Of a DNA stretch of 28,426 nt, positions 1,666 through 28,426 are shown piece by piece (position 1 is the stretch's first letter; the number at the start of each line of letters is the position of its first letter). Position numbers and translations under genes: made by a program. The notes below the pieces were generated by a model. The model did not search any database. It was not told where the DNA came from and worked only from the letters and a program-made list of their open reading frames with translations. The stretch lies in the IMG/VR virus record IMGVR_UViG_2913123054_000008, one strand, 5' to 3'. This stretch comes from a virus. Taxonomy: Duplodnaviria > Heunggongvirae > Uroviricota > Caudoviricetes.

Positions 1666-4110
1666 TCAATAGTCGTGGGTCATGTTGGCACGCTGGCGGG
1701 CGCGTTTATCGCGCTCAATCTGTTCGAGCGTGTCGCGTAGTTGTCTGTCAAGCTGATTCCCCGGCGCAACACCTCCCGGCAGATTGATGTTGTATTCGCT
1801 TTTGCTCTGGTCAATGTAAGAGCGCCCCGCCGGTGCGGTAACTGGCTGATAAGCCTGATAGCCGCCATATGTGCTGGTTGCCGGGATGTAGGAATTACCC
1901 TGTGTGGCGGCATTGGTTTTGGCGGCGGTCTGGTCGAGGCTGTCCGACTCTTTGTTGATGATGCCGAGCTTTTCGAGAAGCCAGTCGACACCGCTGCGCA
2001 GCTTGTTAAAAACATTGAGCGGAGCCATCAAGGCAGAGGCCAGTGTCTGACCAAATATGACGCCGACATTTTTGCAGCTATCAAGCGTTTCCTGCGTGGC
2101 CTTAACCGGTGCTATCAGGTCTTTAAACCACTGCCAGACGCCGCGCAGTTTCTCGCCGAGACCATCAAAAATGGGAGCCAGTGGAGCGAACATTTCCCCG
2201 ACTGGGGCAAAGGCACTCATGATGCCCTCAATCACTCCCGAGAAAAATGCGCTGATGGGCTCCCAATATTTACGGATGAGTAGCGCCCCCGCCACAATCG
2301 CCGCACCGACGGCCACTATCGGCCAGGTAATCGCACCGAGCGCTGTCGCAATGGCACTACCGACGACAGTAAAGACCGTACCCAGCACGCCAGCCGCGGC
2401 GATAATGGCATTAATCCCCATGACAACCGGCCACGCAACGAGACCAATGCCGCCGATGATACCAATCAGCGCCAGCGCACCACCGGCGATGATGCTGATA
2501 GTTTCCGCTAACTCCTTGTTGTCTTTGATCCAGTCATCAAGCTTTAGCACATACCGTGTTGCTGTCTGAGTTAGCTGACGCAATGAGCTATCTTGCTGGT
2601 CGTAGAGGTCGGTACCGACGGCCTCAAAAGCGGATTGAAACTCTTTGAAGTCGCCACCTAAGTTATCCTGCATGACCTTAACCAATTCCTCGGTTTTACC
2701 GTCAGAATCCTTAATTATCTTGGTCAGTTCATCCAGTTTTCCACTGGCCGCTGCGGCCATTAACACACTTGCAGCGGAACTGGCTTCCTCGCCGAATATC
2801 GTTTTCATATACTCGGCTTTTTGACCTGTACCGAGGTTGTTGCGCTTAAAGCTGGCTTGTATTTCTTTCAGGATGGTAAAGATTGGCCGTGTATTGCCTT
2901 TTTTATCCATCGTCTTAACGCCAAGCTCTTTAATGGCATCATAGGCTTTGCCAGTTGGAGCCTGCAGTCGACTTAAAACAGCTCGGCTACCGGTTCCTGC
3001 CATCGAACCTATGATTTTTGCATCGTGTAACGCACCCAGCATCGCGGCGGTTTCTTCTAGGCTGACACCGGCATCTTTGGCAACAGGACCAACATATGTA
3101 AGTGAGTCGTTTAATCCCTCAAATGATGCCTGTGTTTTATTTATCGCCATCGATATGACATCTGCTATATGCGATGCCTTGTCATCTGCGAGCCCGAATG
3201 CCGATTTGGTGCCAATAAGCAAAGCGGCGTTTTCCTCCATAGTTTTTTTATTTGCCAGCGACATATTCAGAATGGCCGGTGTTTGCGCCACTATGCCGTC
3301 TTTATCTGCGCCAGATTTGGCTACGATAATCTGCGCGGCGGCGGCATCATCTGCTGAGGCCGCTGAGTTATCGCCGAGCTGACGCGCCTGTTTGCGTAGA
3401 GCCTGCATTTCTGGAGACTGCTTATCGACCCCAAGCACGGCCTGCAGCTCGGAATTCTTCTGCGCAAATTCATAACCGGGTATCAGTAATTTAACCCCGG
3501 CCATCGTTCCCGCTGTCGCGATACCGACCCCGGCAGCACCGGCTGCAGCCATGTTACCGGCAAGCTCTTTACCTGATTTATATCGCTCTTTCACCCGGCT
3601 TAATTTCGCCTGCTGTGCACTGACGCGCGCCAGTGCCTCGCGCTGTCGATTAAGCTGCGCCGTCGTTTCGCTGATGGATGTTTTGAGCCGACGCTCATCG
3701 GCAGACAGGGTGCGGGTATTAATACCGGCCTGCATCAGCTCGGAGCGCTGACGCTGTACCGACGTTCTCAGGCTGTTGTATTTCGTCTGCAGCTCAGAGG
3801 CGGCTCGCTTTGCCGCTTCGAGTGCCTGCGCCTGCGCGCGGGTCGGACTGGTGGTGTTTTTAAACTGCACGGCCAGCTCACCGGCCTCGCGTTTCGCTTT
3901 CTCAAGCGACTGACTGGTCACGGCCAGTTGCGCGCTTGCCTTACGAAAGCCGTCGATTTTTGACGCCTGACCATTCAGGTCACGCAGCCCTTTTTGTGTG
4001 TTGCGAATATCACCCGACAAGGATTTACTCGCGGTCTGGATGGATTTAAGCGGTCTGGTCGCCTGGTCGACCGCTTTCAGCAATACCTCAAGCCTCAGGT
4101 TATTACTCAT
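1666..4110 (-). CDS. T: tail tape measure protein
   Basis: 814 aa; coiled-coil-rich N-terminal part (Q/A/R/E-rich), central Gly/Ala-rich hydrophobic segment, position after the E/E' chaperone pair; size as P2 gpT. Confidence 0.9.
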   Translation of the reverse strand: MSNNLRLEVLLKAVDQATRPLKSIQTASKSLSGDIRNTQKGLRDLNGQASKIDGFRKASAQLAVTSQSLEKAKREAGELAVQFKNTTSPTRAQAQALEAAKRAASELQTKYNSLRTSVQRQRSELMQAGINTRTLSADERRLKTSISETTAQLNRQREALARVSAQQAKLSRVKERYKSGKELAGNMAAAGAAGVGIATAGTMAGVKLLIPGYEFAQKNSELQAVLGVDKQSPEMQALRKQARQLGDNSAASADDAAAAQIIVAKSGADKDGIVAQTPAILNMSLANKKTMEENAALLIGTKSAFGLADDKASHIADVISMAINKTQASFEGLNDSLTYVGPVAKDAGVSLEETAAMLGALHDAKIIGSMAGTGSRAVLSRLQAPTGKAYDAIKELGVKTMDKKGNTRPIFTILKEIQASFKRNNLGTGQKAEYMKTIFGEEASSAASVLMAAAASGKLDELTKIIKDSDGKTEELVKVMQDNLGGDFKEFQSAFEAVGTDLYDQQDSSLRQLTQTATRYVLKLDDWIKDNKELAETISIIAGGALALIGIIGGIGLVAWPVVMGINAIIAAAGVLGTVFTVVGSAIATALGAITWPIVAVGAAIVAGALLIRKYWEPISAFFSGVIEGIMSAFAPVGEMFAPLAPIFDGLGEKLRGVWQWFKDLIAPVKATQETLDSCKNVGVIFGQTLASALMAPLNVFNKLRSGVDWLLEKLGIINKESDSLDQTAAKTNAATQGNSYIPATSTYGGYQAYQPVTAPAGRSYIDQSKSEYNINLPGGVAPGNQLDRQLRDTLEQIERDKRARQRANMTHDY

Positions 4111-5187: not shown

Positions 5188-6366
5188 TTAGCTGTTGACC
5201 GATTCGGCCAGATTCACCAGATATTTATCGGTGATACGCTGGCGCAGGGTTAGGCTTTCCAGTGGGGGAACCGGTGTATAGTCGTAGTCGATATACAGTT
5301 TCCCGGCCTTGAGGGTTTCCTTATCGTTCGATTCCTCGTCGAACCAGCATTCACCGTCCACGATGTAGCCGTTTGATTTCAGCTCGCGGAATTTGGCGTT
5401 AATGCCGTCGACAATGTCACGGATAAGCGATGCGGTGATGGGCTTATCGACCGCCCACATGTGCGCCTCGGCCATCGTGTCGGCCAGCACCTGCGCGGTG
5501 CGGGTGTAGTTCTCAAACAGGAAAAGCGGGTCATCAGAGCAGGTGCGGTTACCCCAAAAGCGGAAGCCATCCTTACGCACCAGTGTCGTGACCCCGGCCT
5601 CGTTGAGCAGATCAGCATCGGTGCCGGATGCCTGCAAATCCCAAAACACTGACGCACTGATGCCGGTAACACCCTGCACGCCGACGTTAGACAGGGTTTT
5701 GTGCCAGCCGACGGTCTGGTCGATATAGGCACGCAGGCCGAGTGCGCGCGCAGTTGCGTATGCCGGTGCGGTGGCGTTTGTGGTGGTATCCCATGCAAGG
5801 AAATCAGGCCAGATGACCATCAGCTCGCGCTGGCTGAAATTCTCGCGATAGGTCATCGCCTCGGAAATGGTTTTACAACCCCATGCGCTGATATAGCCAA
5901 AGGCGCGCAGGCTGATACAGACCGAAGCAAGTGCGACTGCGACCTCTTTGGTATCGAGACCCGGCACGCCGAGAATGCGCGGCTTAACGCCGGTGACCGC
6001 TTCGGCAGTCAACAGCGCCTTGATGCCGGTATATTTACCGTTCTCATCCGTGCCGCCGATGATATTGGAAATGGTCTGCGCTTCGGCGTCTTCTCCGGTA
6101 CCTTCGGCAACACGCACGACAACTGTGACAGGTTTTGACTGGTCGGCGATAGCCTGCAGGGATGCAGCCAGCGTGCCTTTTTTACCGGCTTTCGCAATGG
6201 CGCTTTGCACATTGGTAATCAGTACCGGTTCGTTGAGGGGAAATGTCGTGGCATCTGCATCGCTGGCCGTGCAGACCATGCCGACGATTGCGGTTGCAAC
6301 AGTGGATATGACGCGGGTGCCGTCGTTAATCTCAAGCACCTGCACGCCGTGGTGAAAATCACTCAT
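5188..6366 (-). CDS. FI: contractile tail sheath protein
   Basis: 392 aa; position upstream of the tube gene; size as P2 gpFI. Confidence 0.9.
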   Translation of the reverse strand: MSDFHHGVQVLEINDGTRVISTVATAIVGMVCTASDADATTFPLNEPVLITNVQSAIAKAGKKGTLAASLQAIADQSKPVTVVVRVAEGTGEDAEAQTISNIIGGTDENGKYTGIKALLTAEAVTGVKPRILGVPGLDTKEVAVALASVCISLRAFGYISAWGCKTISEAMTYRENFSQRELMVIWPDFLAWDTTTNATAPAYATARALGLRAYIDQTVGWHKTLSNVGVQGVTGISASVFWDLQASGTDADLLNEAGVTTLVRKDGFRFWGNRTCSDDPLFLFENYTRTAQVLADTMAEAHMWAVDKPITASLIRDIVDGINAKFRELKSNGYIVDGECWFDEESNDKETLKAGKLYIDYDYTPVPPLESLTLRQRITDKYLVNLAESVNS

Positions 6367-6460
6367 CCGGTTAACTCCGTGGTTAGTGGGCGAGTGTATT
6401 TTCTGTTGTGCAGTAACGGCGGGCTATTTGTCGGCGTTGGTTAGCAGATGGCACATAAAC

Positions 6461-6490
6461 AAATTAATAAAAGACGGGCATCAGCCCGCC
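6461..6490 (-). terminator. rho-independent terminator after the tail fibre assembly gene
   Basis: Stem cgggc/gcccg (6475-6488) followed on the minus strand by TCTTTTATTAATTT; lies 3' of the V-W-J-I-H-tfa operon. Confidence 0.5.
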
Positions 6491-6506
6491 ATTCTTTCAA
6501 AGGTTC

Positions 6507-6950
6507 CTATTCTGGTTTGACGGGCCAGGTGATATCTGGAGCTGTAGATGTGTCTACTGCTTCCAGTGCTTCAAGATAATCTAGCCGCAAATTGTATTGA
6601 GCAAGATCATCACCATTCAAACGCCCAATGGCGGCTTTGCCAGGCCATTGCTTGCTTTGCATGTATTCATTTGCGGCATCAATTCGCCGTTGTTTTTCAC
6701 GCTCGGCGGATGCAATTAACTGCTCCTTAGTTGGTTCCGGGGCATCAACCCACGTTGGCAGTCCTCCATCTCCTGGCACCCTGATTTTTCCTGGGTTAAC
6801 TCTCACATACTCAAGGAAAACATCTTCGCCAACTTCTACGCCATTTTCAGGCCATGTGCCTGATCGCTCATAGTCTTCTTTCAGAATCAGGGGATAAAAA
6901 GCGTTTGTTTTTGCATCATAGATATATCTGTTCATTTTATTAATACCCAA
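6507..6950 (-). CDS. tail fibre assembly chaperone (Tfa, gpG-like)
   Basis: 147 aa ORF immediately downstream of and overlapping the tail fibre gene; Tfa-like C-terminus; visibly lower GC than the core. Confidence 0.75.
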   Translation of the reverse strand: MGINKMNRYIYDAKTNAFYPLILKEDYERSGTWPENGVEVGEDVFLEYVRVNPGKIRVPGDGGLPTWVDAPEPTKEQLIASAEREKQRRIDAANEYMQSKQWPGKAAIGRLNGDDLAQYNLRLDYLEALEAVDTSTAPDITWPVKPE

Positions 6951-8130
6951 TCAAAATACATGAACCACCAGAAATGAAGTCACTGGCACGAGAAATAATA
7001 GTTGATGTTGGTCCTGCTCCAACATTTATTGCAAACGTGGTAATTCTCCCACTGGTTGGTTCATATCCGGCACCAACTGCAAAGCCTAAAATTCTACCGG
7101 GGAAAGGAATAGGCAAGGTAATAACCTGATCGCCATCATGAGGCGGAATTGCAACCCATTGAATCAACTTTCCAGGTAATTTCTGCCAGTATATTTCAGA
7201 TTGAAAACTGCTCATATCGGGGATGTAATCAAGGTCAGCTGTACCAACCTGGCGCTTTGCGGCGTCCTTCAGTCCAAGATTCTGGAGAAACTTCGCCACA
7301 TCTTGAATATCCTCGCCGTTTTGGCTTTTCTGCATCGCGCCGGTGATACGTGTATCATCACCCGCCGCAACAGTATTGGCAGTTGTACCGGTGTTTTTCG
7401 TCGAGCTGTCACCAAGTTGCAGATTCTGGCGCGCCAGTGCTGGATTAGGTAAATCGGAGAGATTGCGTTCTTTAGCCAGCCGTGCATTCGCGTTATCCAT
7501 CGCAATTTTTACGGCTTTCGGGGTTGCCGATTGTGTCTCGCGGTCATCCGTCACACTGCTGTTAAGCTGCGTAAAACCTTTAGCGGTAGTGGTTGCATCT
7601 GGATGGTTGCGCGACTGTTCGTGGGCGCGCATGAGTCCGTCAGCGTAACTCTTCACCTCGATAACCTTATCGTCAACATACTGGCGCGTAGCAAGTACGA
7701 CTGACGGGTCAATTTTCAGGGTGATAGCCGACGTGCTCGACACAATCAGAATCATGCGAATGGTCTGCGTGCGGCCGCTACCCTCCTGTAGTTGTGGCTT
7801 GTAGGTTTCCGGGCAGTTCGCCACAGCAATGAGCACACCTGCGTCGTCGTAGAGACCAATCTCGCGGATCCAGAAACCACCTTCATTCTCGGGAATAATC
7901 TGTTCCGCGATAATCTGACTGGTATTGGCCGGGTCAACGGTCAGCAGGTTCAGCGGCGCGATGCGTTTCTGGTTAATGAGCTTCGTCTGCGCCGGGTCAG
8001 GGGTCGGCAACGTACCATTCGCATCACCGACGGCCATCTGCGTCAGGTTGAGTTTGGTACCGAGTGCCGCCGCGTTCGCCAGCCGCGCCGCGCCCTGATT
8101 GGTCAGAATGGCAAAATATTTTGCGGTCAT
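6940..8130 (-). CDS. H: tail fibre protein (H-like, short form)
   Basis: 396 aa ORF after baseplate gene I; N-terminal region typical of the P2 H baseplate-attachment domain; C-terminal part low-GC. Confidence 0.8.
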   Translation of the reverse strand: MTAKYFAILTNQGAARLANAAALGTKLNLTQMAVGDANGTLPTPDPAQTKLINQKRIAPLNLLTVDPANTSQIIAEQIIPENEGGFWIREIGLYDDAGVLIAVANCPETYKPQLQEGSGRTQTIRMILIVSSTSAITLKIDPSVVLATRQYVDDKVIEVKSYADGLMRAHEQSRNHPDATTTAKGFTQLNSSVTDDRETQSATPKAVKIAMDNANARLAKERNLSDLPNPALARQNLQLGDSSTKNTGTTANTVAAGDDTRITGAMQKSQNGEDIQDVAKFLQNLGLKDAAKRQVGTADLDYIPDMSSFQSEIYWQKLPGKLIQWVAIPPHDGDQVITLPIPFPGRILGFAVGAGYEPTSGRITTFAINVGAGPTSTIISRASDFISGGSCILIGY

Positions 8131-8735
8131 GCGTTCACTCTCAGGTTATCAATCAAATGGATGGCCGAGGCCGGGTAATATTCACCGCCGACGACAATCT
8201 CCTCGGGGGTGTAGGGGTAAACAGTCAGCGCGTCGCCGTGATAGCATCCCGCGCCGACATACAGTTCGCCGGTCGAGCTCAGACTGATAGCCAGCCCGGT
8301 CAGGTGGCGACTTGCCGGTTTGGCGTCTTCAATCAGGCGCTCAAGCTCCTGATACATTTCGTCAGTGATGCCGTTGTCGAGGACGCCAACAACGAGGCGG
8401 AATGTGCCTGGCTCCTCGTCGAGTTGCCACCACTCGCGCACCTCAATCAGAAAGCCGAGCGGCTCGACGACCCGACGCAATGCGCTGATGGTGCCTTTGT
8501 GCTGATGGACGAAAAACGAGGACGCGCAGACGCTGCGCTTTGTCGCCTCCGGCCATTTCTCATCCCACCTGTCGACCGACAGCGCCCACGCCAGATACGG
8601 CAGCAGCTTTACCGGGCAGGTGTGCCAGTTCCACAGGGTGCGCAGCGGTACCGGCACGCGCTGAATCTCAGAGAACGCAGCGGCGGCGGCGACTTCCAGC
8701 GGCGACGAGCCAACGGGTAATAGCCGGTCATTCAT
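8127..8735 (-). CDS. I: baseplate assembly protein I
   Basis: 202 aa; synteny J-I-H. Confidence 0.8.
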   Translation of the reverse strand: MNDRLLPVGSSPLEVAAAAAFSEIQRVPVPLRTLWNWHTCPVKLLPYLAWALSVDRWDEKWPEATKRSVCASSFFVHQHKGTISALRRVVEPLGFLIEVREWWQLDEEPGTFRLVVGVLDNGITDEMYQELERLIEDAKPASRHLTGLAISLSSTGELYVGAGCYHGDALTVYPYTPEEIVVGGEYYPASAIHLIDNLRVNA

Positions 8736-19481: not shown

Positions 19482-19706
19482 TTAGCCTTTAGACTTTTTA
19501 GGATCATCTTTTCTCTGATAAGTGCGTTCTTCCTGAATTTTCCCATCTTCCTTGTGAATTTTGACCGAACCTGTTTTGTTCGACATAAACTCAGATGTTG
19601 TTTTAATCAGCTCGGCCTTTGTGGTCGCGGTCTTGCTAGGGCGGTCATTGCCCTCTTTTTGCAACTTCCACTTATCGCCATCTTTTGTAATATGATAGTT
19701 ATCCAT
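19482..19706 (-). CDS. small hypothetical protein (DUF2188-like moron between Q and cos)
   Basis: 74 aa from MDNYHITKDGDKWKLQKEGNDRPSK... with a GGAGG RBS; low-GC; the motif pattern (DGxW, KEG, HxxDGKIQ) recalls DUF2188-type small proteins from memory only. Confidence 0.5.
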   Translation of the reverse strand: MDNYHITKDGDKWKLQKEGNDRPSKTATTKAELIKTTSEFMSNKTGSVKIHKEDGKIQEERTYQRKDDPKKSKG

Positions 19707-19910
19707 TAAAGCCTCCAACTGTTGTGGGGAACATAAAGTCTCAATATGGATATTAGCCAAAGCGAAACCGTAAAATTGTGCAACTGATCCCATCCTTTAG
19801 CACCACGCCACAGACGCACCATGCGCCCACGATCACACCCGGCCACTACAGCGCCGTCACGACGTTCTCAGACGATAATTTTTAATAATACGCACCACCG
19901 CTGGCGCGCA

Positions 19911-20942: not shown

Positions 20943-21152
20943 CTATCGTCGACGTGGTGGAGGTGCGTATTTTGTCGGTCTGCTGATGCTATCCAGCTTG
21001 CCGCAATTATCCCTGACTATTTCGGCACACCCGACCAGCTCGGTGGGTGTCAAATTCTCATTGACCATTATCTGCTGCAGGCGATGAACGATAGCCATTA
21101 ACTTAATATTTCTGGTCTGGTGCTGCGGTATTTCACCTGGTAGTCGATGCAT
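20943..21152 (-). CDS. small hypothetical protein (69 aa)
   Basis: ORF with a good RBS (GAGGG, about 7 nt spacer) before the ATG; lies between two copies of a covarying hairpin repeat. Confidence 0.4.
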   Translation of the reverse strand: MHRLPGEIPQHQTRNIKLMAIVHRLQQIMVNENLTPTELVGCAEIVRDNCGKLDSISRPTKYAPPPRRR

Positions 21153-21351
21153 ATTATCACCCTCAATGAATTTTAATCAGTGCCGTCAAAACGCCACTAT
21201 AAAACCCTCTCAGGTCATGTCTCATTCATCACTGGCGTGTCATCAATAGCACATTGAGAAATTTTGAAAGGCAGGACTAAAGCCTCGTGGTCTCGTTACT
21301 CAACCCCGTCGACGCAAAAAGCTGGTTTTTGCGCCAACACGGTTATCATGT

Positions 21352-21582
21352 TTAACGCCAGCTATCGTCTTCCCAAATCTCTTGTAATATGCCGCTTAAT
21401 GTTTCTTTGTCTGCTTCTTTATCGAATCCGATAACCTCTACACCAGTCATTGACCCTTTCTTGACGTTAACTTTTATTGCTGGAAAAACGCATTGTACTC
21501 GATGTGTTATTTCATTCTGAAAAGCATCAATGATCTGTTGCCCTAATTTTTGTTCTTTATCCAACGTGATATTGATTCTCAT
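21352..21582 (-). CDS. dinI: DinI-family protein (DNA-damage-inducible protein I-like)
   Basis: 76 aa; MRINITLDKEQKLGQQIIDAFQNEITHRVQCVFP...VIGFDKEADKETLSGILQEIWEDDSW aligns by eye with E. coli DinI along its length; downstream of an SOS box. Confidence 0.8.
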   Translation of the reverse strand: MRINITLDKEQKLGQQIIDAFQNEITHRVQCVFPAIKVNVKKGSMTGVEVIGFDKEADKETLSGILQEIWEDDSWR

Positions 21583-21585
21583 AAT

Positions 21586-21768
21586 CTAATCAGCCTTATA
21601 AAAATTATCATCTTCGGTTTCGTTATTCTCGCTGTTTGCTAGGTCTGCAATGAGAGTGAGCGCGAGCTTTAAGTCTGATGGCTTGCAGTTTGCAATCAGA
21701 GATACCTCGGCAATAAATTGCACACAAGCCCACTTTTGCTGCGTTCGGCTGAAATGTTCGTCAACCAT
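21586..21768 (-). CDS. small protein, first gene of the SOS-controlled operon (possible Tum antirepressor N-terminal part)
   Basis: 60 aa ORF with a near-perfect RBS (GGAGGG) and a LexA box just upstream; ends with TAG in the same frame as, and 3 nt before, the dinI-like ATG. Confidence 0.5.
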   Translation of the reverse strand: MVDEHFSRTQQKWACVQFIAEVSLIANCKPSDLKLALTLIADLANSENNETEDDNFYKAD

Positions 21769-21787
21769 GGAATCCCTCCTACAGGGT

Positions 21788-21807
21788 TACTGTATGTTTA
21801 TACAGTA
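21788..21807. promoter_or_regulatory. LexA (SOS) box upstream of the 60 aa / dinI-like operon
   Basis: TACTGTATGTTTATACAGTA contains CTGT-N8-ACAG and matches the enterobacterial SOS-box consensus TACTGTATATATATACAGTA at 18 of 20 positions; it overlaps a TATAAA -10-like hexamer on the coding strand. Confidence 0.75.
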
Positions 21808-21881
21808 GCACGTATTGGTAAAAGATGGGAAGAAAAAAAACGAATAGGGCGATTGTCGTATGTACATGATATGGATATAAA

Positions 21882-24104
21882 TTACTCTGATATTGGTTTT
21901 GATGCTTCAGCTATCGCAGCAACACGATTAAGGATTTTCCTGGCTTTAGCCTCATGCGATGGTGCTGTGGAAAATATTTCTCCTTTGGCCGTTCCGCGTA
22001 GCCATTTACCATCAAAACAACTTTTACCACCGGCCATCAGGTGCAGAGCTTCGCCCCGGCTGATATTAATGCCGGTTGTCAAATGTATCTCTTCGATAGT
22101 TTTCGCTATAGCTGCGTTTTGCTCATCCGTTCCGTGGACGAATTTTCGCCGTGCTGCTGGCTTTTGCTTCCTGAGTCGGTTGGTCAACTCTCGTCTTTCA
22201 CGCCGACTCAGTGGTTTTGTTAAATCCAGTATCGGTGGATCGCTTTCGCTTCCCGTACAGTTATTGACAGAACTCCGAGGGACGGCTTTGCCGTCCTGAA
22301 GGTCAACGGCCAAATCAACAGCACGCTTCGGAACAATCTTCCACTGAGTGAGCCGGGTTAAAATCGGACTCCCTGCACCTATGGAGGAATCGTAGACTCC
22401 CTTAATACATACCGTTTCCTCACCGTACTGATTAAGCTCGGTACGCGGTTCATACAGTGTGCGCACCTGTAAATCATCGCGACGGACAAACGGCCCACCC
22501 TGAGCATTAACATAACCAGCCCAGTCACCAGCGTCGGCGGCATCATGGACGGCGGCAAACTCAACGCTCAGTCCGTGCGCGGTTTCGGTATCAGCGAGGC
22601 GACGCAACTCACGGTAAACCGTCACCGGCGCACCACCGATAAACTGAAACTGACGGATGTGCCAGCGCGCAGCCCATGCTGAAACGGCGGGGGCTGTCTC
22701 TTTCAGTAGCTCACCGCTTTCATCATCGGTTTCACCATCGAGAGCATAACCGTCGATATTTTTTGAAATGTATTTAGCAACATAGCCTGTTGCGCTGCCT
22801 TTCTCCGGGTCAATGGACTCGGCGTGGAAACGTGCTTTTTTGGATTTATCGCTTTTCAGTTCGTGGCGGTCTTCTTTCCATGCGTATTTACGGACGATGG
22901 AGCGAACATATTCAACATCTTCCGGCAGCATGAACATCAGCATGTGCCAGTGTGGAGTGCCGTCGTGATGAGGCTCGGCGACACGAATACCGAAAATACG
23001 GACATCTTCCCGATGTAGTTTGGCACGGATACGCGCCCAGATACCGGTTAGATAGTTTTGCGTGTCAGCCGGGCTGGCACCGCTCCATTTGCTGTTACGG
23101 TAACCGGCTTTAGTCGTGGCGTGATATTTTGACGGCGCGGTTAGAGTGTAAAACTCACCGACATAACCGAGCTCATTACAGATGTTTTCAAACCCACGAA
23201 TGCGGGTCATGAGCTCACAGCGGCGAATCGCAGGGTTAGCAACTGAGCCATCATATTTTTCAATCAGGCTGATACGGTTGCCGTCTTCGTCTTCGAGATC
23301 CAGACCTTTGAGAAATTCACGAGTGCGGCGCTTTTGTTCACGCCAGTCAGTCACGCAGTTTTTACTCGCGTAAGTGTTTTTTTTCTTACTGACGTTGCCG
23401 ACTGCAATTTGCAGGTGTTCGCGCCACGTAGCTGCAACACGGCGCAAACGACCGCGCCACCACCCATCGTTAAACATTTTGGCGATAGCCGGTGCGATTT
23501 CATCCGCACCGACATATTTTTTTTCAACCCGCTCCCAATGTGGTGGGATAACGTTAAATTGGAGGGAAATAAAGCCAGCACGAATATACCAGGTGTACAG
23601 CGTTTTAAGCTCGCCGAATCCGTGGTCATTAATGTTGGCAAGTTCACCACGAATGAAATTAGCAATATCAGCGGCCAACAGGTCAACATCAGCGCGCGAC
23701 ATATCCGGGAGACGGTTATATCGGGCGACCATATTAACCATGCGTGACGACAGATATTGCATTTGCTGAGTATCAAAATGACTTCCAAAAACAGCGGTTG
23801 ATACCTTGCTGTTGATACCAGCGCATTCGTATTTTTTTGCGACCAGTTCAAGACGCGGCAATGCCTTTTTGCAGAAGTTGATTAAAAATGCATTGGCTCG
23901 TTGACTACCCTGATTTTGCTCCAGCACCGCAGCAGTGCGATAAACATCTAACCGCACGCAGTCGGGCTGGAGAGAAAGCACCTTTTTTGCATGCAGCAAA
24001 GCCGCGAACATACGGTCGCGGCGATGCTGTTGCTCATAAGTAAGGTATGGGCTGGAGATTGCCGACCGTGGGACGTTCCACGGATAAGCGAATTGAACAG
24101 CCAA
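21882..24104 (-). CDS. A: replication initiation protein A (rolling-circle endonuclease, gpA-like)
   Basis: 740 aa; contains TLTAPSKYH, HHDGTPHWHM and AKYISKNIDGYALDG motifs recalled from P2 gpA; last gene of the early operon. Confidence 0.9.
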   Translation of the reverse strand: MAVQFAYPWNVPRSAISSPYLTYEQQHRRDRMFAALLHAKKVLSLQPDCVRLDVYRTAAVLEQNQGSQRANAFLINFCKKALPRLELVAKKYECAGINSKVSTAVFGSHFDTQQMQYLSSRMVNMVARYNRLPDMSRADVDLLAADIANFIRGELANINDHGFGELKTLYTWYIRAGFISLQFNVIPPHWERVEKKYVGADEIAPAIAKMFNDGWWRGRLRRVAATWREHLQIAVGNVSKKKNTYASKNCVTDWREQKRRTREFLKGLDLEDEDGNRISLIEKYDGSVANPAIRRCELMTRIRGFENICNELGYVGEFYTLTAPSKYHATTKAGYRNSKWSGASPADTQNYLTGIWARIRAKLHREDVRIFGIRVAEPHHDGTPHWHMLMFMLPEDVEYVRSIVRKYAWKEDRHELKSDKSKKARFHAESIDPEKGSATGYVAKYISKNIDGYALDGETDDESGELLKETAPAVSAWAARWHIRQFQFIGGAPVTVYRELRRLADTETAHGLSVEFAAVHDAADAGDWAGYVNAQGGPFVRRDDLQVRTLYEPRTELNQYGEETVCIKGVYDSSIGAGSPILTRLTQWKIVPKRAVDLAVDLQDGKAVPRSSVNNCTGSESDPPILDLTKPLSRRERRELTNRLRKQKPAARRKFVHGTDEQNAAIAKTIEEIHLTTGINISRGEALHLMAGGKSCFDGKWLRGTAKGEIFSTAPSHEAKARKILNRVAAIAEASKPISE

Positions 24105-25673: not shown

Positions 25674-26045
25674 TCAGTTAAGAGCGGTGCGCTGGTCGAT
25701 GTAGCGACAATCAATCGCTTGTTGAGTCAGCTTATCGCGCCATGCTTTTACATTTACGAGGGTTCGGCTTCGTTTAGCAGCTTCCTCTTTGTTGGAAAAG
25801 TCTTTGGTCGGAGCTTTGAGAAGGACTCCCTCATCGAGCCATTGCCAGACCAGACGCTCGCTAACACCGCGAGTAGCGGCGAAGTCTTTCACAGTCATCG
25901 TGTCTGACATAGCGGAGCGAATCATTGTCTGTAGAGCTGGCAGCATGGCGGTAACGATGGCATCAAACTGTGTTGGATCTAGCAGCACAGTTTGATTTTG
26001 TGAGTTTTGCGAGTCGTGCGTCGAGATTGATTTTGCATCTGACAT
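25674..26045 (-). CDS. Apl/Cox-like excisionase-type HTH regulator (first gene of the early lytic operon)
   Basis: ORF with a strong RBS (AGGAGA) at the 26045 start; HTH-like segment VKDFAATRGVSERLVWQWLDEG; divergent from the repressor gene. Several internal Met codons make the true start uncertain. Confidence 0.55.
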   Translation of the reverse strand: MSDAKSISTHDSQNSQNQTVLLDPTQFDAIVTAMLPALQTMIRSAMSDTMTVKDFAATRGVSERLVWQWLDEGVLLKAPTKDFSNKEEAAKRSRTLVNVKAWRDKLTQQAIDCRYIDQRTALN

Positions 26046-26158
26046 ATCGCATTATCTCCTGTTGTTTGAAATGTAGTGCAGTGGTGTGCATCTTGGTCGA
26101 TGAGCACCAATATAGATCGCTAAATTTTGGTTGTAAACAAAATTCTTGTTGGTGTCAT
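26046..26158. promoter_or_regulatory. immunity switch region between the apl-like and cI genes (lytic/lysogenic promoters and operators expected)
   Basis: 113 bp AT-rich intergenic region between divergent regulators; contains short inverted repeats (e.g. TTGGT-N8-ACCAA). Individual promoters are not resolved by eye. Confidence 0.4.
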
Positions 26159-27004
26159 ATGTCTAAAAATGATGTTAATGCGTCTGCCGCATTGGAACGT
26201 GTCCTTTCTGCATACGGCTTTAAGCAGCAAAAGGAACTAGCCGAAAGGCTTGGCATACATGCAAACAACGTGAGTAGCTGGCTTGCTAGAAACGTAATCC
26301 CTAGCAACGTTTTCGTTGAGTGTGCTCTTGATACTGGAGCTGACCTGCGATGGCTAATTAATGGTGAGCTTGCAAATGCAAGATTTGAAGTGGTGAAAAC
26401 TAAGCTTAAAGGTAAGCAACTCTATGATGAAATCATGGCAAATGGAGGGAGGGCGGTTCTGCGTCGGATTCTCGATGCGTATGGTTTTACTCTGCAAAAA
26501 GAGCTTGGAGATTTATTAGGTATATCTTCCGGCACTATAAGCACTTGGGTTAGACGCGATTTTTTCCCCGGTGACGTGGTTGTCACTTGCGCCCTTGATA
26601 CTGGCGTATCGTTAGAATGGTTATCAACCGGAAAAGGCCAGATGCGTAACAGTAATGATGGTGAACCGGCAAATGCTTTAACGATTAGAAAGTGCCGCCT
26701 CGAGGCGGGCGAACTCAAAGATATCGGACGCTGGACTCCTGATATATCTATGGTTTCATCAAATACTGATGATTTAGTGTTTATTGATGGTGTGAGCACA
26801 TCTTGGCTTGTTGATAGTTCTAACTCGAAGATAGGAAATGGTCGCTGGCTTATTGGTATTGATGGCGCACTCGATGTTTTTGACGTAATCAGGTTGCCAG
26901 GCGGAAAGGTCAGGTTATCAAATAAGTCTGCTGAGTTTGAATGTAATATTTCAGATATCACACCATCAGGTGCGGTTATTTTTACTTTGGAAAAGCATGT
27001 TTAA
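26159..27004 (+). CDS. cI: CI-type immunity repressor with an apparently duplicated N-terminal DNA-binding domain
   Basis: 281 aa from MSKNDVNAS...; two tandem segments (about aa 10-69 and 99-158) each resemble the 186 CI N-terminal HTH domain, followed by a C-terminal domain resembling the CI oligomerisation domain. Confidence 0.75.
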   Translation: MSKNDVNASAALERVLSAYGFKQQKELAERLGIHANNVSSWLARNVIPSNVFVECALDTGADLRWLINGELANARFEVVKTKLKGKQLYDEIMANGGRAVLRRILDAYGFTLQKELGDLLGISSGTISTWVRRDFFPGDVVVTCALDTGVSLEWLSTGKGQMRNSNDGEPANALTIRKCRLEAGELKDIGRWTPDISMVSSNTDDLVFIDGVSTSWLVDSSNSKIGNGRWLIGIDGALDVFDVIRLPGGKVRLSNKSAEFECNISDITPSGAVIFTLEKHV

Positions 27005-27013
27005 GGAGCAGTA

Positions 27014-27352
27014 ATGAAAAAGTTTATATTTGCGATAGTCTGCATTGCACTTTCTTCCTCAGCCATAGCCGCTGAGAAGTTTAAAGAGATAGACGGCGCT
27101 GCATATGGTGACAAGTGGCCTCTAACCTTTGAAAAGGCAAAGGTATCATGTGTTAACCGTGCTTATGCTTTTGTGTATGACATCAAAACTGATGATAGAT
27201 ATCCTCTGAATGGCATGGCGGTAGATGCTGTTAAATCAGGAAAGCTGGAGGGGTCTAACTTAGATGACGTATGGAAGGATGACCCTGAGTATGACGGCGT
27301 TAAAATTTCAATTTCACCGGTGATTGATGCCGCTACAGCCCTTTGTAATTAA
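27014..27352 (+). CDS. small secreted/periplasmic protein (moron between cI and int)
   Basis: 112 aa; N-terminal signal peptide MKKFIFAIVCIALSSSAIA followed by AEK; two Cys in the mature part; low-GC; possibly YebY/DUF2511-like, from memory and unverified. Confidence 0.55.
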   Translation: MKKFIFAIVCIALSSSAIAAEKFKEIDGAAYGDKWPLTFEKAKVSCVNRAYAFVYDIKTDDRYPLNGMAVDAVKSGKLEGSNLDDVWKDDPEYDGVKISISPVIDAATALCN

Positions 27353-27376
27353 TTTTCTTTTAGCCTCGGTATCGCA

Positions 27377-28426
27377 ATGACTGTAAGTAAACAAAAAAGT
27401 GGAAAATGGTTGTGTGAACTCTATCCAAATGGTCGAGAAGGGCGGCGTATACGTCGGCAATTCAATACCAAAGGTGAGGCCGAGGCATTTGAAGCATTTA
27501 CCAAAAGCGAGAGTGAAGATAAGCCGTGGCTCGGCAAGAAAGAAGACCGCCGACGCTTAAGCGAGATTATTCAGCTTTGGCACAATTTGCACGGTCAAGC
27601 GTTAGTCGCCAGTAAGTCGAGGTTTGCAAAGCTTCAAATCGTATGTAATGGACTTGGCGACCCGATTGCATCTCGCCTTACCGCGAAAGACTGGGCTCAT
27701 TATCGTGACCGTCGATTACGTGGTGAAATAGACAATGGTTATCATAAAGACCCCTCGAAATGGATCGCTAAACCTATAACCGTCAATCGCGAACAACAAT
27801 ACCTAGAAGCAGTGTTTAATGAGCTCCGCCGGTTAGGGGAGTGGAGCCTACCCAATCCACTTGATGGGATCCGAGTATTCAAAGAAGCTGAGAAAGAAAT
27901 GTCCTGGCTAACTTTGTCTCAGCTCCCGGAGCTGTTTCGAGCCTGCGAGCAATACGGCAAAGAAGACCTCACCATGATTGTTAAGGTGTGCCTTGCAACC
28001 GGCGCTCGATGGGGGGAAGCGGAGAGATTGACCCGACCTCAACTTTCTCCATATAAACTAACGTTCACCAAAACCAAAGGTAAGAAGAATCGCACAGTTC
28101 CTATTCCTAAATGGCTGTACGACGAGTTGTCCGTACGTCAAGGCAGAATGTTTAAACCCTGCTATCAGGAGTTTAAAAAGATGCTCAAACTAACGAATAT
28201 TGAATTGACGGAAGGGCAGAAGACGCACGTTTTGCGTCATACTTTTGGTGCGCATTTTATGATGAACGGAGGGAATATACTGGTGCTGCAAAAAATTCTC
28301 GGACATGCCAATATTCGAGAAACAATGAAGTATGCGCACTTTGCTCCTGACCACCTTGAACAAGCTGTAACCCTCAATCCGTTATCGCTGTATGTTGGCG
28401 ACAATGTGGCGGCAGAGGTTGCATAA
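27377..28426 (+). CDS. int: tyrosine integrase (P2/186-type)
   Basis: 349 aa; catalytic-domain motifs visible (ATGARWGE, HVLRHTF, ...LGHANIRETMKYAH with the terminal Tyr); stop codon at 28424-28426, so attL is expected just beyond the window. Confidence 0.9.
   Translation: MTVSKQKSGKWLCELYPNGREGRRIRRQFNTKGEAEAFEAFTKSESEDKPWLGKKEDRRRLSEIIQLWHNLHGQALVASKSRFAKLQIVCNGLGDPIASRLTAKDWAHYRDRRLRGEIDNGYHKDPSKWIAKPITVNREQQYLEAVFNELRRLGEWSLPNPLDGIRVFKEAEKEMSWLTLSQLPELFRACEQYGKEDLTMIVKVCLATGARWGEAERLTRPQLSPYKLTFTKTKGKKNRTVPIPKWLYDELSVRQGRMFKPCYQEFKKMLKLTNIELTEGQKTHVLRHTFGAHFMMNGGNILVLQKILGHANIRETMKYAHFAPDHLEQAVTLNPLSLYVGDNVAAEVA

Follow-up and report, generated by a model that had tools for sequence, protein, structure and literature searches.

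The question raised by this locus is whether the AT-rich end of a tail fibre gene and the chaperone gene beside it were exchanged together as a unit of host recognition, as an earlier note on this DNA had proposed for positions 6507-7300. The window, by which we mean the whole 28,426-nt stretch that was analyzed, encodes a fibre protein identical in sequence to one annotated in Escherichia sp. E4385 (NCBI gene call), and its source is a 186/P2-like prophage of that strain. Our analysis indicates that the region is very probably the host-recognition cassette of this prophage, in which the fibre tip and its cognate tail fibre assembly chaperone (Tfa) form an exchangeable unit. The gene order Tail_P2_I (8127-8735), fibre (6940-8130), Tfa (6507-6935), terminator and sheath places the fibre gene in the position of a gpH-type fibre, and the following features of the locus are referred to throughout.

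6940-8130, minus strand: tail fibre gene of the gpH type (396 aa), built of three mosaic parts, assigned from its Pfam domains and its position after gpI
7640-8130, minus strand: N-terminal baseplate-attachment domain of the fibre, aa 1-164, the phage-backbone part, assigned by homology to 613R3, Midge and EtG
7277-7639, minus strand: fibre shaft, aa 165-285, with a Phage_fiber_2 repeat, the second mosaic block, matching E. coli prophage fibres
7264-7289, minus strand: decayed proximal invertase crossover site at the upstream cassette boundary, TTCTCCAGAATCTTGGACTGAAGGAC, core TT at 7277-7276
6940-7276, minus strand: fibre tip, aa ~286-396, a putative receptor-binding foot domain, assigned from composition, homologues and a structural model
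6507-6935, minus strand: Tfa gene, 142 aa, assigned from Caudo_TAP and PHROG 188
6492-6505, minus strand: distal crossover site remnant at the downstream cassette boundary, core AA at 6505-6504 plus outer half-site CCTTTGAAAGAA at 6503-6492
6463-6490, minus strand: Rho-independent terminator ending the baseplate-fibre operon, GGCGGGCTGATGCCCGTC followed by TTTTATT
6367-6480, minus strand: intergenic stretch of the phage backbone preceding the sheath gene and related by homology to the PF late-promoter region of P2

The Tfa gene starts at ATG 6935, four nucleotides past the fibre stop codon (6942-6940), in agreement with the NCBI gene call and homologues, so that a 4-nt gap separates two genes that had been described as overlapping. 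The terminator is also kept in comparison locus L012 and has a P2 counterpart in the annotated V operon terminator downstream of gene G. Only 140 nt lie between the Tfa and sheath genes, and window positions 6480-6302 are 80% identical in nucleotides (nt) to P2 locus L009 (2537-2717), a match that includes both the activator site and the transcription start annotated for PF.

Formal calculation gives a GC content that is not uniform, with 0.532 for the whole window and 0.451 for 6507-7300. No stretch of the late-gene half has a lower GC than this span, and in the window as a whole only two do, both lying within the early/lysogeny region; the lowest 450-nt block of the structural half (6784-7233) has a GC of only 0.404. 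GC and GC3 are 0.442 and 0.336 for the fibre tip (aa 287-396), 0.464 and 0.378 for the Tfa gene, and 0.45 and 0.36 for the whole cassette (6507-7276, minus strand), the neighbouring tail genes having 0.58 and 0.64; sheath, gpI and gpJ have GC values of 0.57-0.61 and GC3 values of 0.67-0.74. Counted by codon, GC3 is 91/253 in the cassette, whereas twelve other tail genes together give 2053/3188 (0.644; Fisher p = 1.8e-18), and no other 253-codon block in those twelve genes falls below 0.466. The earlier observation that the 3' part of the fibre gene and the Tfa gene are more AT-rich than their neighbours is therefore borne out. The same dip is present, however, in 10 of the 10 relatives measured, P2 included (module 0.447, neighbours 0.569), with tip-plus-Tfa or invertible segments at GC 0.445-0.485 and their neighbours at 0.49-0.59, and so it says nothing specific about this phage. 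Low GC is a mark of the module class, not of recent import. Exchange of a receptor-binding cassette, which the earlier note had read from the low GC, is upheld by the composition shift together with the breakpoints and the co-transfer of tip and Tfa described below. As a general marker of exchangeable modules in this phage group, the AT-rich signature can locate such modules but cannot date their transfer.

Two other readings of the composition have to be weighed. It is very improbable that the cassette was acquired recently from a non-Escherichia donor of low GC, its AT-richness being a fresh foreign signature. Such an origin would fit a GC3 far under the phage and host level and a tip family so rare that a set of 5.8 billion proteins contains only about 12 clusters of it and the GTDB species representatives none. 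Close relatives of the tip (77-90% aa identity) nevertheless come from Escherichia in every case, the dip recurs in every relative, and, although its copies in five backgrounds share only 78-86% nt identity, the cassette keeps a GC of 0.45-0.46 in all of them, which indicates that the composition is old and stable. We consider it likewise very improbable that low GC is a functional or compositional by-product, arising for example through the amino acids of beta-rich tips or through selection that keeps mRNA structure weak at the end of the operon, and carries no record of ancestry. The dip does occur in every tip-plus-Tfa module examined, whatever the tip family, as this reading would predict. 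GC1 (0.608) and GC2 (0.406) of the Tfa gene, however, are like the values in the other tail genes, the drop being confined to GC3; the shift thus sits in synonymous sites rather than in amino-acid composition, pointing to mutational or ancestral history at those sites. Moreover, sharp homology breakpoints fall where the composition changes.

These breakpoints divide the fibre gene into three parts. The N-terminal domain is a full-length match (1-150/150) of aa 1-150 to the Pfam Phage_tail_fib N-domain (PF12571, E 3.5e-62), and the segment encoding it (GC 0.559, GC3 0.671) belongs to the phage backbone, being 94-95% identical in nt to vB_EcoM-613R3, Midge and EtG in matches that end at 7640; aa 1-175 of the fibre share 93-94% identity with the backbone relatives. 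The shaft (GC 0.525), which carries the Phage_fiber_2 repeat at aa 180-220 (E 7.5e-16), matches the fibres of three P2-like prophages of E. coli at 94.5% nt identity, solely across 7274-7638, and is homologous to aa 84-204 of the Mu fibre S (PDB 8ju3, 5yvq). The fibre of strain A15 shares 88% aa identity across aa 1-290 and none past there. P2 H (669 aa) aligns with the fibre over aa 26-220 only (50% identity), leaving its C-terminus unaligned, and P2 G (175 aa) has no BLASTP match to Tfa, so that full-length collinearity with P2 H/G is lacking. Although the fibre is indeed 396 aa long against 669 aa in P2 H, as had been pointed out, we reject its shortness as an unusual trait because the fibres of its relatives measure 320, 324, 378, 392, 397 and 398 aa.

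The third part of the gene is continuous with Tfa. The cassette occupies ~6506-7276 (~770 bp, minus strand), very close to the span originally proposed, and comprises the last ~110 fibre codons and the entire Tfa gene. Over 7282-6508, tip and Tfa together are 86% identical in nt to locus L013 and 78% identical to L004/L005, L007 and L014, and the block is seen in four other tail backbones at these identities (78-86%). The same tip stands behind at least four unrelated fibre N-termini, beside baseplate genes of Mu Gp45-48, Phage_Wedge1 or P2 gpI type, and a second prophage in Escherichia sp. E4385 also bears the tip-plus-Tfa block. Tip and Tfa have thus been transferred together, and the comparison supports the view that they form one recombinationally exchanged receptor-binding cassette. 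When 6432-7640 was compared by megablast with 5,426 complete E. coli genomes and 50,697 phage records, no DNA match was found within 6506-7273; because the nearest copy of the cassette is only 86% identical in nt, the donor cannot be named and the transfer cannot be dated.

Both cassette breakpoints coincide with the cores of Gin/Cin-type invertase crossover sites, of which relatives keep intact copies. At the upstream boundary, the site TTCTCCAGAATCTTGGACTGAAGGAC has 6 mismatches to TTCTNNNAAACCWWGGTTTNNNAGAA, is embedded in codons for QNLGLKDAAKR, and has diverged at 4 of the 9 specified positions of its inner half; the equivalent position in L001, L011, L004 and L007 holds crossover sites with 0-1 mismatch. 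Homology to L011 stops here at 7274, and cassette homology starts at 7282 (L013) or 7266 (L004). At the downstream boundary, the window reads TAG GAA followed by CCTTTGAAAGAATGGCGGGC, as compared to TTCTCCCAAACCAA followed by CCTTTGAAAGAATGGCGGGC in L012, which is the distal site of that locus (3062-3087), and homology to the L012 backbone picks up again at 6505. In L004, relatives of the cassette lie within an invertible segment with a Resolvase/HTH_7 invertase. The window contains no crossover site with three or fewer mismatches, and hence no pair of inverted 26-bp sites, and a tblastn search of it with the L004 invertase returned only a noise match (E 5.3). ORFs for a second, inverted tip-plus-Tfa set are absent from the window, and 6300-8200 holds no long inverted repeat. 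A lone 15-nt inverted-repeat pair in 6300-8200 was judged to be chance, as was a crossover-like site with 4 mismatches inside the integrase gene (28064-28089), which stands without a partner site or fibre context. The cassette therefore appears to be a fixed, single-specificity version of the interval, and a phage with a single cassette between cores, decayed sites and no invertase would be locked into one receptor specificity.

How the cassette came to lie between these cores can be read in more than one way. The conserved NLGLxxAAKR peptide limits how the proximal site can vary, and ordinary homologous recombination at conserved sites, without invertase chemistry, could make the breakpoints. 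There is also some chance, though clearly not the better one, that the single cassette is the remnant of a once-invertible two-cassette segment in which deletion of the Tfa'/tip' half and the invertase froze the orientation, with no import involved. The closest backbone relative, 613R3, and the E. coli prophages of A15 and CX21 bear invertible segments exactly here, with or without an invertase gene, CX21 shows that independent loss of the invertase is possible, and the outer halves of both crossover sites persist in the window. Such a history nevertheless requires a deletion that begins 3 nt past the Tfa stop and ends exactly at the distal core, there is divergence in the proximal site's inner half as well, and tip and Tfa are without a close match in any relative that has an invertible P2-like segment. 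Remnant and cassette exchange are not mutually exclusive. Returning to exchange, we offer two further suggestions, tentatively and as a pair: cassette ends at 2-bp cores without an invertase could be the footprint of exchange or resolution between elements by serine invertases, which would then act as occasional cassette shufflers as well as on/off switches, or the rare, Escherichia-only tip family, present in two prophages of the same cryptic-clade strain, might recognize a receptor characteristic of that lineage.

The tip itself is 75-90% identical in aa to about 12 Escherichia protein clusters with unrelated N-termini. A search of genome contigs with the single tip sequence gave no relative, a profile scan of contigs found only partial matches (at most 49%) in other Enterobacterales, and tblastn matches in phage records reach at most 40-50% identity and are restricted to the junction-proximal part; the distal ~50 residues are peculiar to this small Escherichia family. 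A monomer AF2 model of the tip (pLDDT 68.7) has the R1/R2 pyocin fibre foot and AP22 gp53 as its best matches in Foldseek (pyocin feet, E 3e-4 to 2e-3; 4mtm, E 1.3e-2; TM 0.43-0.45), and phmmer finds the same pyocin and AP22 chains at E 0.016-0.034. Pfam Gp53-like_C (PF21882) scores 19.9 bits (E 0.0011) on the tip, under its gathering cut-off of 24.9, and hhalign with tips bearing PF21882 gives a probability of 99.9% for an alignment that extends no further than the PIPFPG motif, without covering the distal ~50 aa. With modest confidence, the model suggests that the tip is a lectin foot like those of R-pyocins and AP22 gp53, domains with a lectin fold that bind LPS and require co-expression of a chaperone (PMC6363177). 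It is also a reasonable inference from the unrelated tip that receptor specificity would differ from that of P2.

Tfa is a member of Pfam Caudo_TAP (PF02413; E 7.4e-30, 104.2 bits against a cut-off of 22.1, covering 9-142) and of PHROG 188 (E 2e-51), and a phmmer search of PDB sequences with it gave nothing meaningful, the Mu Tfa chain included. Identity over the first 50 residues is 0.72-0.92 among Tfa proteins that adjoin the same type of tip, as against 0.36-0.63 in 103 other Tfa proteins, and the C-terminal blocks are 0.66-0.80 identical in both sets. Tfa proteins of 64-71% overall identity with a divergent N-half adjoin a different tip type. On these alignments, the N-half of Tfa varies along with the type of tip and its C-half is generic, a variable-N/conserved-C pattern that fits the Mu/Pam3 chaperone model (PMC9608196).

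In the explanation that we favor, the C-terminal ~110 residues of the trimeric fibre would form a small beta-sandwich foot, whose most likely ligand is a saccharide of the cell surface, for instance LPS. If the chaperone works as Mu Tfa does, its variable N-domain would grip this tip, and its conserved C-domain would drive trimerization of the fibre; since tip and chaperone must match, they would travel together. The cassette would be drawn from an AT-richer pool common to unrelated myovirus tails of Enterobacteriaceae; many relatives have in this interval a Gin/Cin-type invertible segment with two alternative tip-plus-Tfa sets.

Exchange of fibre modules has been known since comparisons of the P2, Mu and P1 fibres in the early 1990s, and what is new here is one more allele of textbook module trading among these phages. 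Base-level boundaries (~7276 and 6505) for a self-contained tip-plus-chaperone module are useful for annotation and phage engineering, and a module naturally grafted onto at least four tail architectures could be exchanged as it stands to retarget P2-like phages or tailocins.

Comparison with known systems places the locus among several relatives. P2 shares the operon position V-W-J-I-H-G, the terminator, the PF-driven sheath gene, the homologous N-terminal collar domain and first fibre repeats of H, and an AT-rich 3' half plus chaperone; its H protein differs in having a longer shaft and a C-terminus unrelated to the tip described here. As cited in PMC8986868, P2 is the founding case of horizontal exchange of fibre segments (Haggard-Ljungquist et al. 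1992). The Mu G segment with Gin, the P1 C segment with Cin, p15B Min, e14 Pin and the P2-like 613R3, A15 and CX21 all resemble the locus in having a variable interval made up of a fibre 3' end, which begins at the crossover site coding for NLGLGEAAKR, plus Tfa. Unlike these invertible segments, the window has no invertase, second inverted tip/Tfa set or intact crossover site, and hence no switching. The R-type pyocin foot and AP22 gp53 (PDB 6cl5, 6cl6, 6cxb, 6ct8, 4mtm), like the tip, are C-terminal domains of P2/CTX-related contractile-tail fibres dependent on a downstream chaperone (PMC6363177), but share only 24-28% sequence identity with it over ~90 residues, their likeness coming from a model of modest confidence. 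Mu Tfa (gene U, PDB 5yvq) is a Caudo_TAP member with a variable N-half and a conserved C-half (PMC9608196), although its PDB chain has no phmmer similarity to the Tfa found here. Salmonella phage BIS20 and other Eganvirus (186-like) phages share the backbone type. BIS20, in which only the fibre, Tfa and switch genes are reported to be without phage homologues (PMC8986868), has other tip/Tfa alleles and matches the window in the sheath flank only. In Eganvirus, each of the five members is reported to have different fibre and Tfa genes, in segments bounded by sequences resembling invertase sites (PMC8986868, citing Haggard-Ljungquist 1992 and Sandmeier).

The window, 28.4 kb long, is a P2/186-like prophage (Peduoviridae); it is 96% identical to Escherichia phage vB_EcoM-613R3 across 90% of its length and about 91% identical to phages Midge, RCIP0057 and several Yersinia P2-like phages. 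Its exact fibre and tail fibre assembly chaperone (Tfa) proteins are seen only in Escherichia sp. E4385 (GCA_005781255.1), and in a set of about 15 billion proteins each is the sole member of its 90% cluster. The prophage also encodes a 186-type CI repressor, CII (CP76), a DinI/Tum-like protein and replication protein A. A mechanical ORF of 344 aa with a GTG start (25970-27004, plus strand) carries CI repressor domains in its C-terminal 180 residues only, together with a weak additional HTH at aa 86-107, and its 5' part overlaps the divergent ORF 25674-26045; translation of cI probably begins well downstream of that GTG. A DUF2188 protein gene (19482-19793, minus strand) lies between the capsid/terminase module and the early region. 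DNA comparisons divide the fibre into three blocks, and the fibre region is laid out as follows.

gpV, W and J, then gpI at 8127-8735, minus strand: tail genes upstream of the fibre
6940-8130, minus strand: tail fibre gene, 396 aa
7640-8130 (aa 1-164): block 1, collar/baseplate-attachment domain, which follows the backbone
7274-7638: block 2, shaft with Phage_fiber_2 repeat, homologous to Mu fibre S aa 84-204
7282-6508: block 3, tip and entire Tfa
6507-6935, minus strand: Tfa gene, 142 aa
6490-6463, minus strand: terminator after Tfa
between terminator and sheath gene, minus strand: PF-like promoter region
5188-6366, minus strand: sheath gene

The fibre is indeed short relative to P2 H (396 versus 669 aa), as the earlier note had remarked, although this is not unusual, lengths below 400 aa being normal in the clade (320, 324, 378, 392, 397 and 398 aa in relatives). 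The overlap between the fibre and Tfa genes reported in that note disappears with the Tfa ATG at 6935, which is backed by the NCBI gene call and by homologues of 140-146 aa, and which lies four nucleotides past the fibre stop.

Block 1 is 94-95% identical at the nucleotide level to 613R3, Midge and EtG, and this homology breaks off at 7640. Block 2 matches the fibres of three other E. coli P2-like prophages (94.5% nt) as far as 7274, and the protein alignment with the fibre of the strain A15 prophage ends at residue 290. Neither 50,697 phage records nor 5,426 complete genomes of E. coli contain a DNA match to block 3. The block recurs as a single contiguous stretch in L013, another P2-like contig (86% nt), and, with 78% nt identity in each case, in three prophages: one Mu-like with a Gin-type invertible segment (L004/L005), one that carries Baseplate_J and Phage_Wedge1 genes (L007), and one of Mu-baseplate type adjoining dusA in the same E4385 genome (L014). 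The tip of about 110 aa is shared, at 75-90% aa identity, between proteins with unrelated N-terminal parts (MHRIDTKTAQ..., MAKNDFKAFA..., MLRIGQVEAT..., or the P2 collar domain), the boundary being sharp at NLGL(G/K)(E/D)AAKR.

L014 (contig VATU01000002 of GCA_005781255.1, locus 5440-6435) belongs to a second prophage in the host genome, unrelated to the window phage, with a Mu Gp45-48-type baseplate and an integrase that adjoins dusA; the fibre (185 aa) and Tfa (144 aa) of this prophage are 77-78% related to the window cassette. Identical sequence follows the Tfa stop in L007 (6113-6200) and L014 (6435-6520) despite their differing baseplate sets (Phage_Wedge1 and Mu Gp45-48, respectively), and the exchanged block in these two elements therefore appears to reach beyond Tfa. 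In L013 (3407-4099), which has the closest cassette copy, the gene after Tfa is not the sheath but one for a Collar-domain (PF07484) protein, which suggests a second fibre-like gene in that P2-like element.

The GC dip lies where the earlier note had placed it, at 0.40-0.41 in 300-nt windows over 6751-7200 between flanks of 0.55-0.64. GC3 falls to 0.336 in the fibre tip and 0.378 in Tfa, compared to 0.67-0.74 in the sheath, gpI, gpJ and gpV genes; for the cassette as a whole it is 0.36, against 0.644 in twelve other tail genes (Fisher p = 1.8e-18), in which no 253-codon block falls below 0.466. The signal is synonymous because GC1 and GC2 are normal. Given this non-uniform GC, alignment of P2 H to the window fibre over aa 26-220 only, and the absence of a BLASTP match between P2 G and the window Tfa, exchange of the cassette is supported. 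Low GC is nevertheless generic rather than a signature of this phage: in all ten relatives measured, the tip and Tfa or the invertible segment have GC of 0.445-0.485 against 0.49-0.59 in adjacent conserved tail genes, and P2 itself shows the same dip (0.447 versus 0.569 for the 3' half of H plus G). Moreover, cassette GC is steady at 0.45-0.46 across five backgrounds with divergence down to 78-86% nt identity. Low GC is a mark of a shared cassette pool, not of recent arrival or of difference from P2.

Elsewhere in the window, two stretches of the early/lysogeny half (21144-21937 and 26712-27505) have GC of 0.40-0.41, below the fibre cassette. A DinI-like (186 Tum-like) gene at 21352-21582 lies in the first, along with small ORFs that match no Pfam family; the second holds the cI 3' end and, directly upstream of the integrase, a DUF2511 gene (27014-27352), possibly a moron or lysogenic-conversion gene. 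A trough of 0.47-0.48 at 2551-3300, within the tape-measure gene (1666-4110), may be another mosaic block.

In the invertase-bearing relatives 613R3, A15 and L004, the NLGLGEAAKR codons hold a 26-bp palindromic crossover site, TTCTNNNAAACC-WW-GGTTTNNNAGAA, with a partner site (TTCTCCCAAACCAACCTTT...) at the opposite end of the invertible segment. The proximal site, with 0-1 mismatches, is located as follows.

L001 (613R3): 3371-3396
L011 (A15 prophage): 3991-4016
L004: 5272-5297
L007: 5326-5351

The corresponding window site, TTCTCCAGAATCTTGGACTGAAGGAC at 7289-7264, has 6 mismatches, and the homology switch (L011 ends at 7274, L013 starts at 7282) spans its core at 7277-7276. At the distal end, three nucleotides past the Tfa stop, the window reads GAA followed by CCTTTGAAAGAATGGCGGGCTGATGCCCGTC, the same sequence as in the outer half-site and the flank of the distal crossover site of the CX21 prophage (L012: TTCTCCCAAACCAA followed by CCTTTGAAAGAATGGCGGGC...); upstream of the distal core the window and L012 are unrelated, and at other cassette-bearing loci the sequence after the Tfa stop is unrelated. 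No invertase gene and no crossover site with three or fewer mismatches was found in the window, which has no room for an alternative tip. These site positions, taken with the lack of an invertase and of a second tip, indicate that the cassette fills, in fixed form, exactly the interval that is invertible in relatives. The joints may have been made by an invertase or by homologous recombination at the short stretches of conserved site sequence; protein constraint also acts on the proximal site.

In the closest backbone relatives, the cassette position is occupied by an invertible fibre segment (L001 1460-3396, L011 1903-4016, L012 3062-4968) that contains an alternative tip in inverted orientation and a pair of convergent Tfa genes. 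The invertase gene is present in 613R3 and A15 and absent in CX21, and the CX21 segment may therefore be frozen or inverted in trans.

Structure prediction gives an all-beta domain for the tip: strands begin at residue ~51 of a 132-aa query, and pLDDT in this part is 70-85 (68.7 overall). Its best structural matches are the R1 and R2 pyocin fibre foot domains (E 3e-4 to 2e-3) and AP22 gp53, and phmmer gives weak hits to these pyocin chains. The tip's match to Pfam Gp53-like_C is below threshold, profile-profile alignment with ordinary Gp53-like tips extends only over the junction and the domain's first half, and the distal ~50 residues define a small family restricted to Escherichia. The matched feet form trimeric lectin-fold jellyrolls, bind core LPS and depend on a co-expressed downstream chaperone (PMC6363177). 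Over its first 50 residues, the window Tfa is 72-92% identical to proteins partnered with the same tip type and 36-63% identical to 103 other Tfa proteins; over residues 91-130 the values are 69-87% and 68-80%, respectively. In addition, Tfa proteins of 64-71% overall identity with a diverged N-half adjoin different tips. This variable N-half and conserved C-half reproduce the pattern of the Mu Tfa model, in which a variable N-domain binds the fibre tip and a conserved C-domain drives trimerisation (PMC9608196, summarising Mu Tfa work), and this also accounts for the joint movement of tip and Tfa. Both receptor class and chaperone mechanism are inferred: the tip most likely works as an R-pyocin-like foot, the Tfa N-domain would bind it, and the C-domain would drive trimerisation.

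Since 1992-94, P2, Mu, P1, lambda and T-even phages have been known to exchange fibre 3' segments together with Tfa horizontally, and crossover-site-like sequences at the segment ends have been described over the same time (PMC8986868, citing Haggard-Ljungquist et al. 1992 and Sandmeier); the same paper reports differing fibre and Tfa genes for all five members of Eganvirus. The window therefore adds a new allele to a known kind of system, as a clean example resolved to the base. Only two points are slightly unusual: both joints lie exactly at crossover-site cores in a phage without an invertase, and a related cassette is carried by a second, unrelated prophage of the same host.
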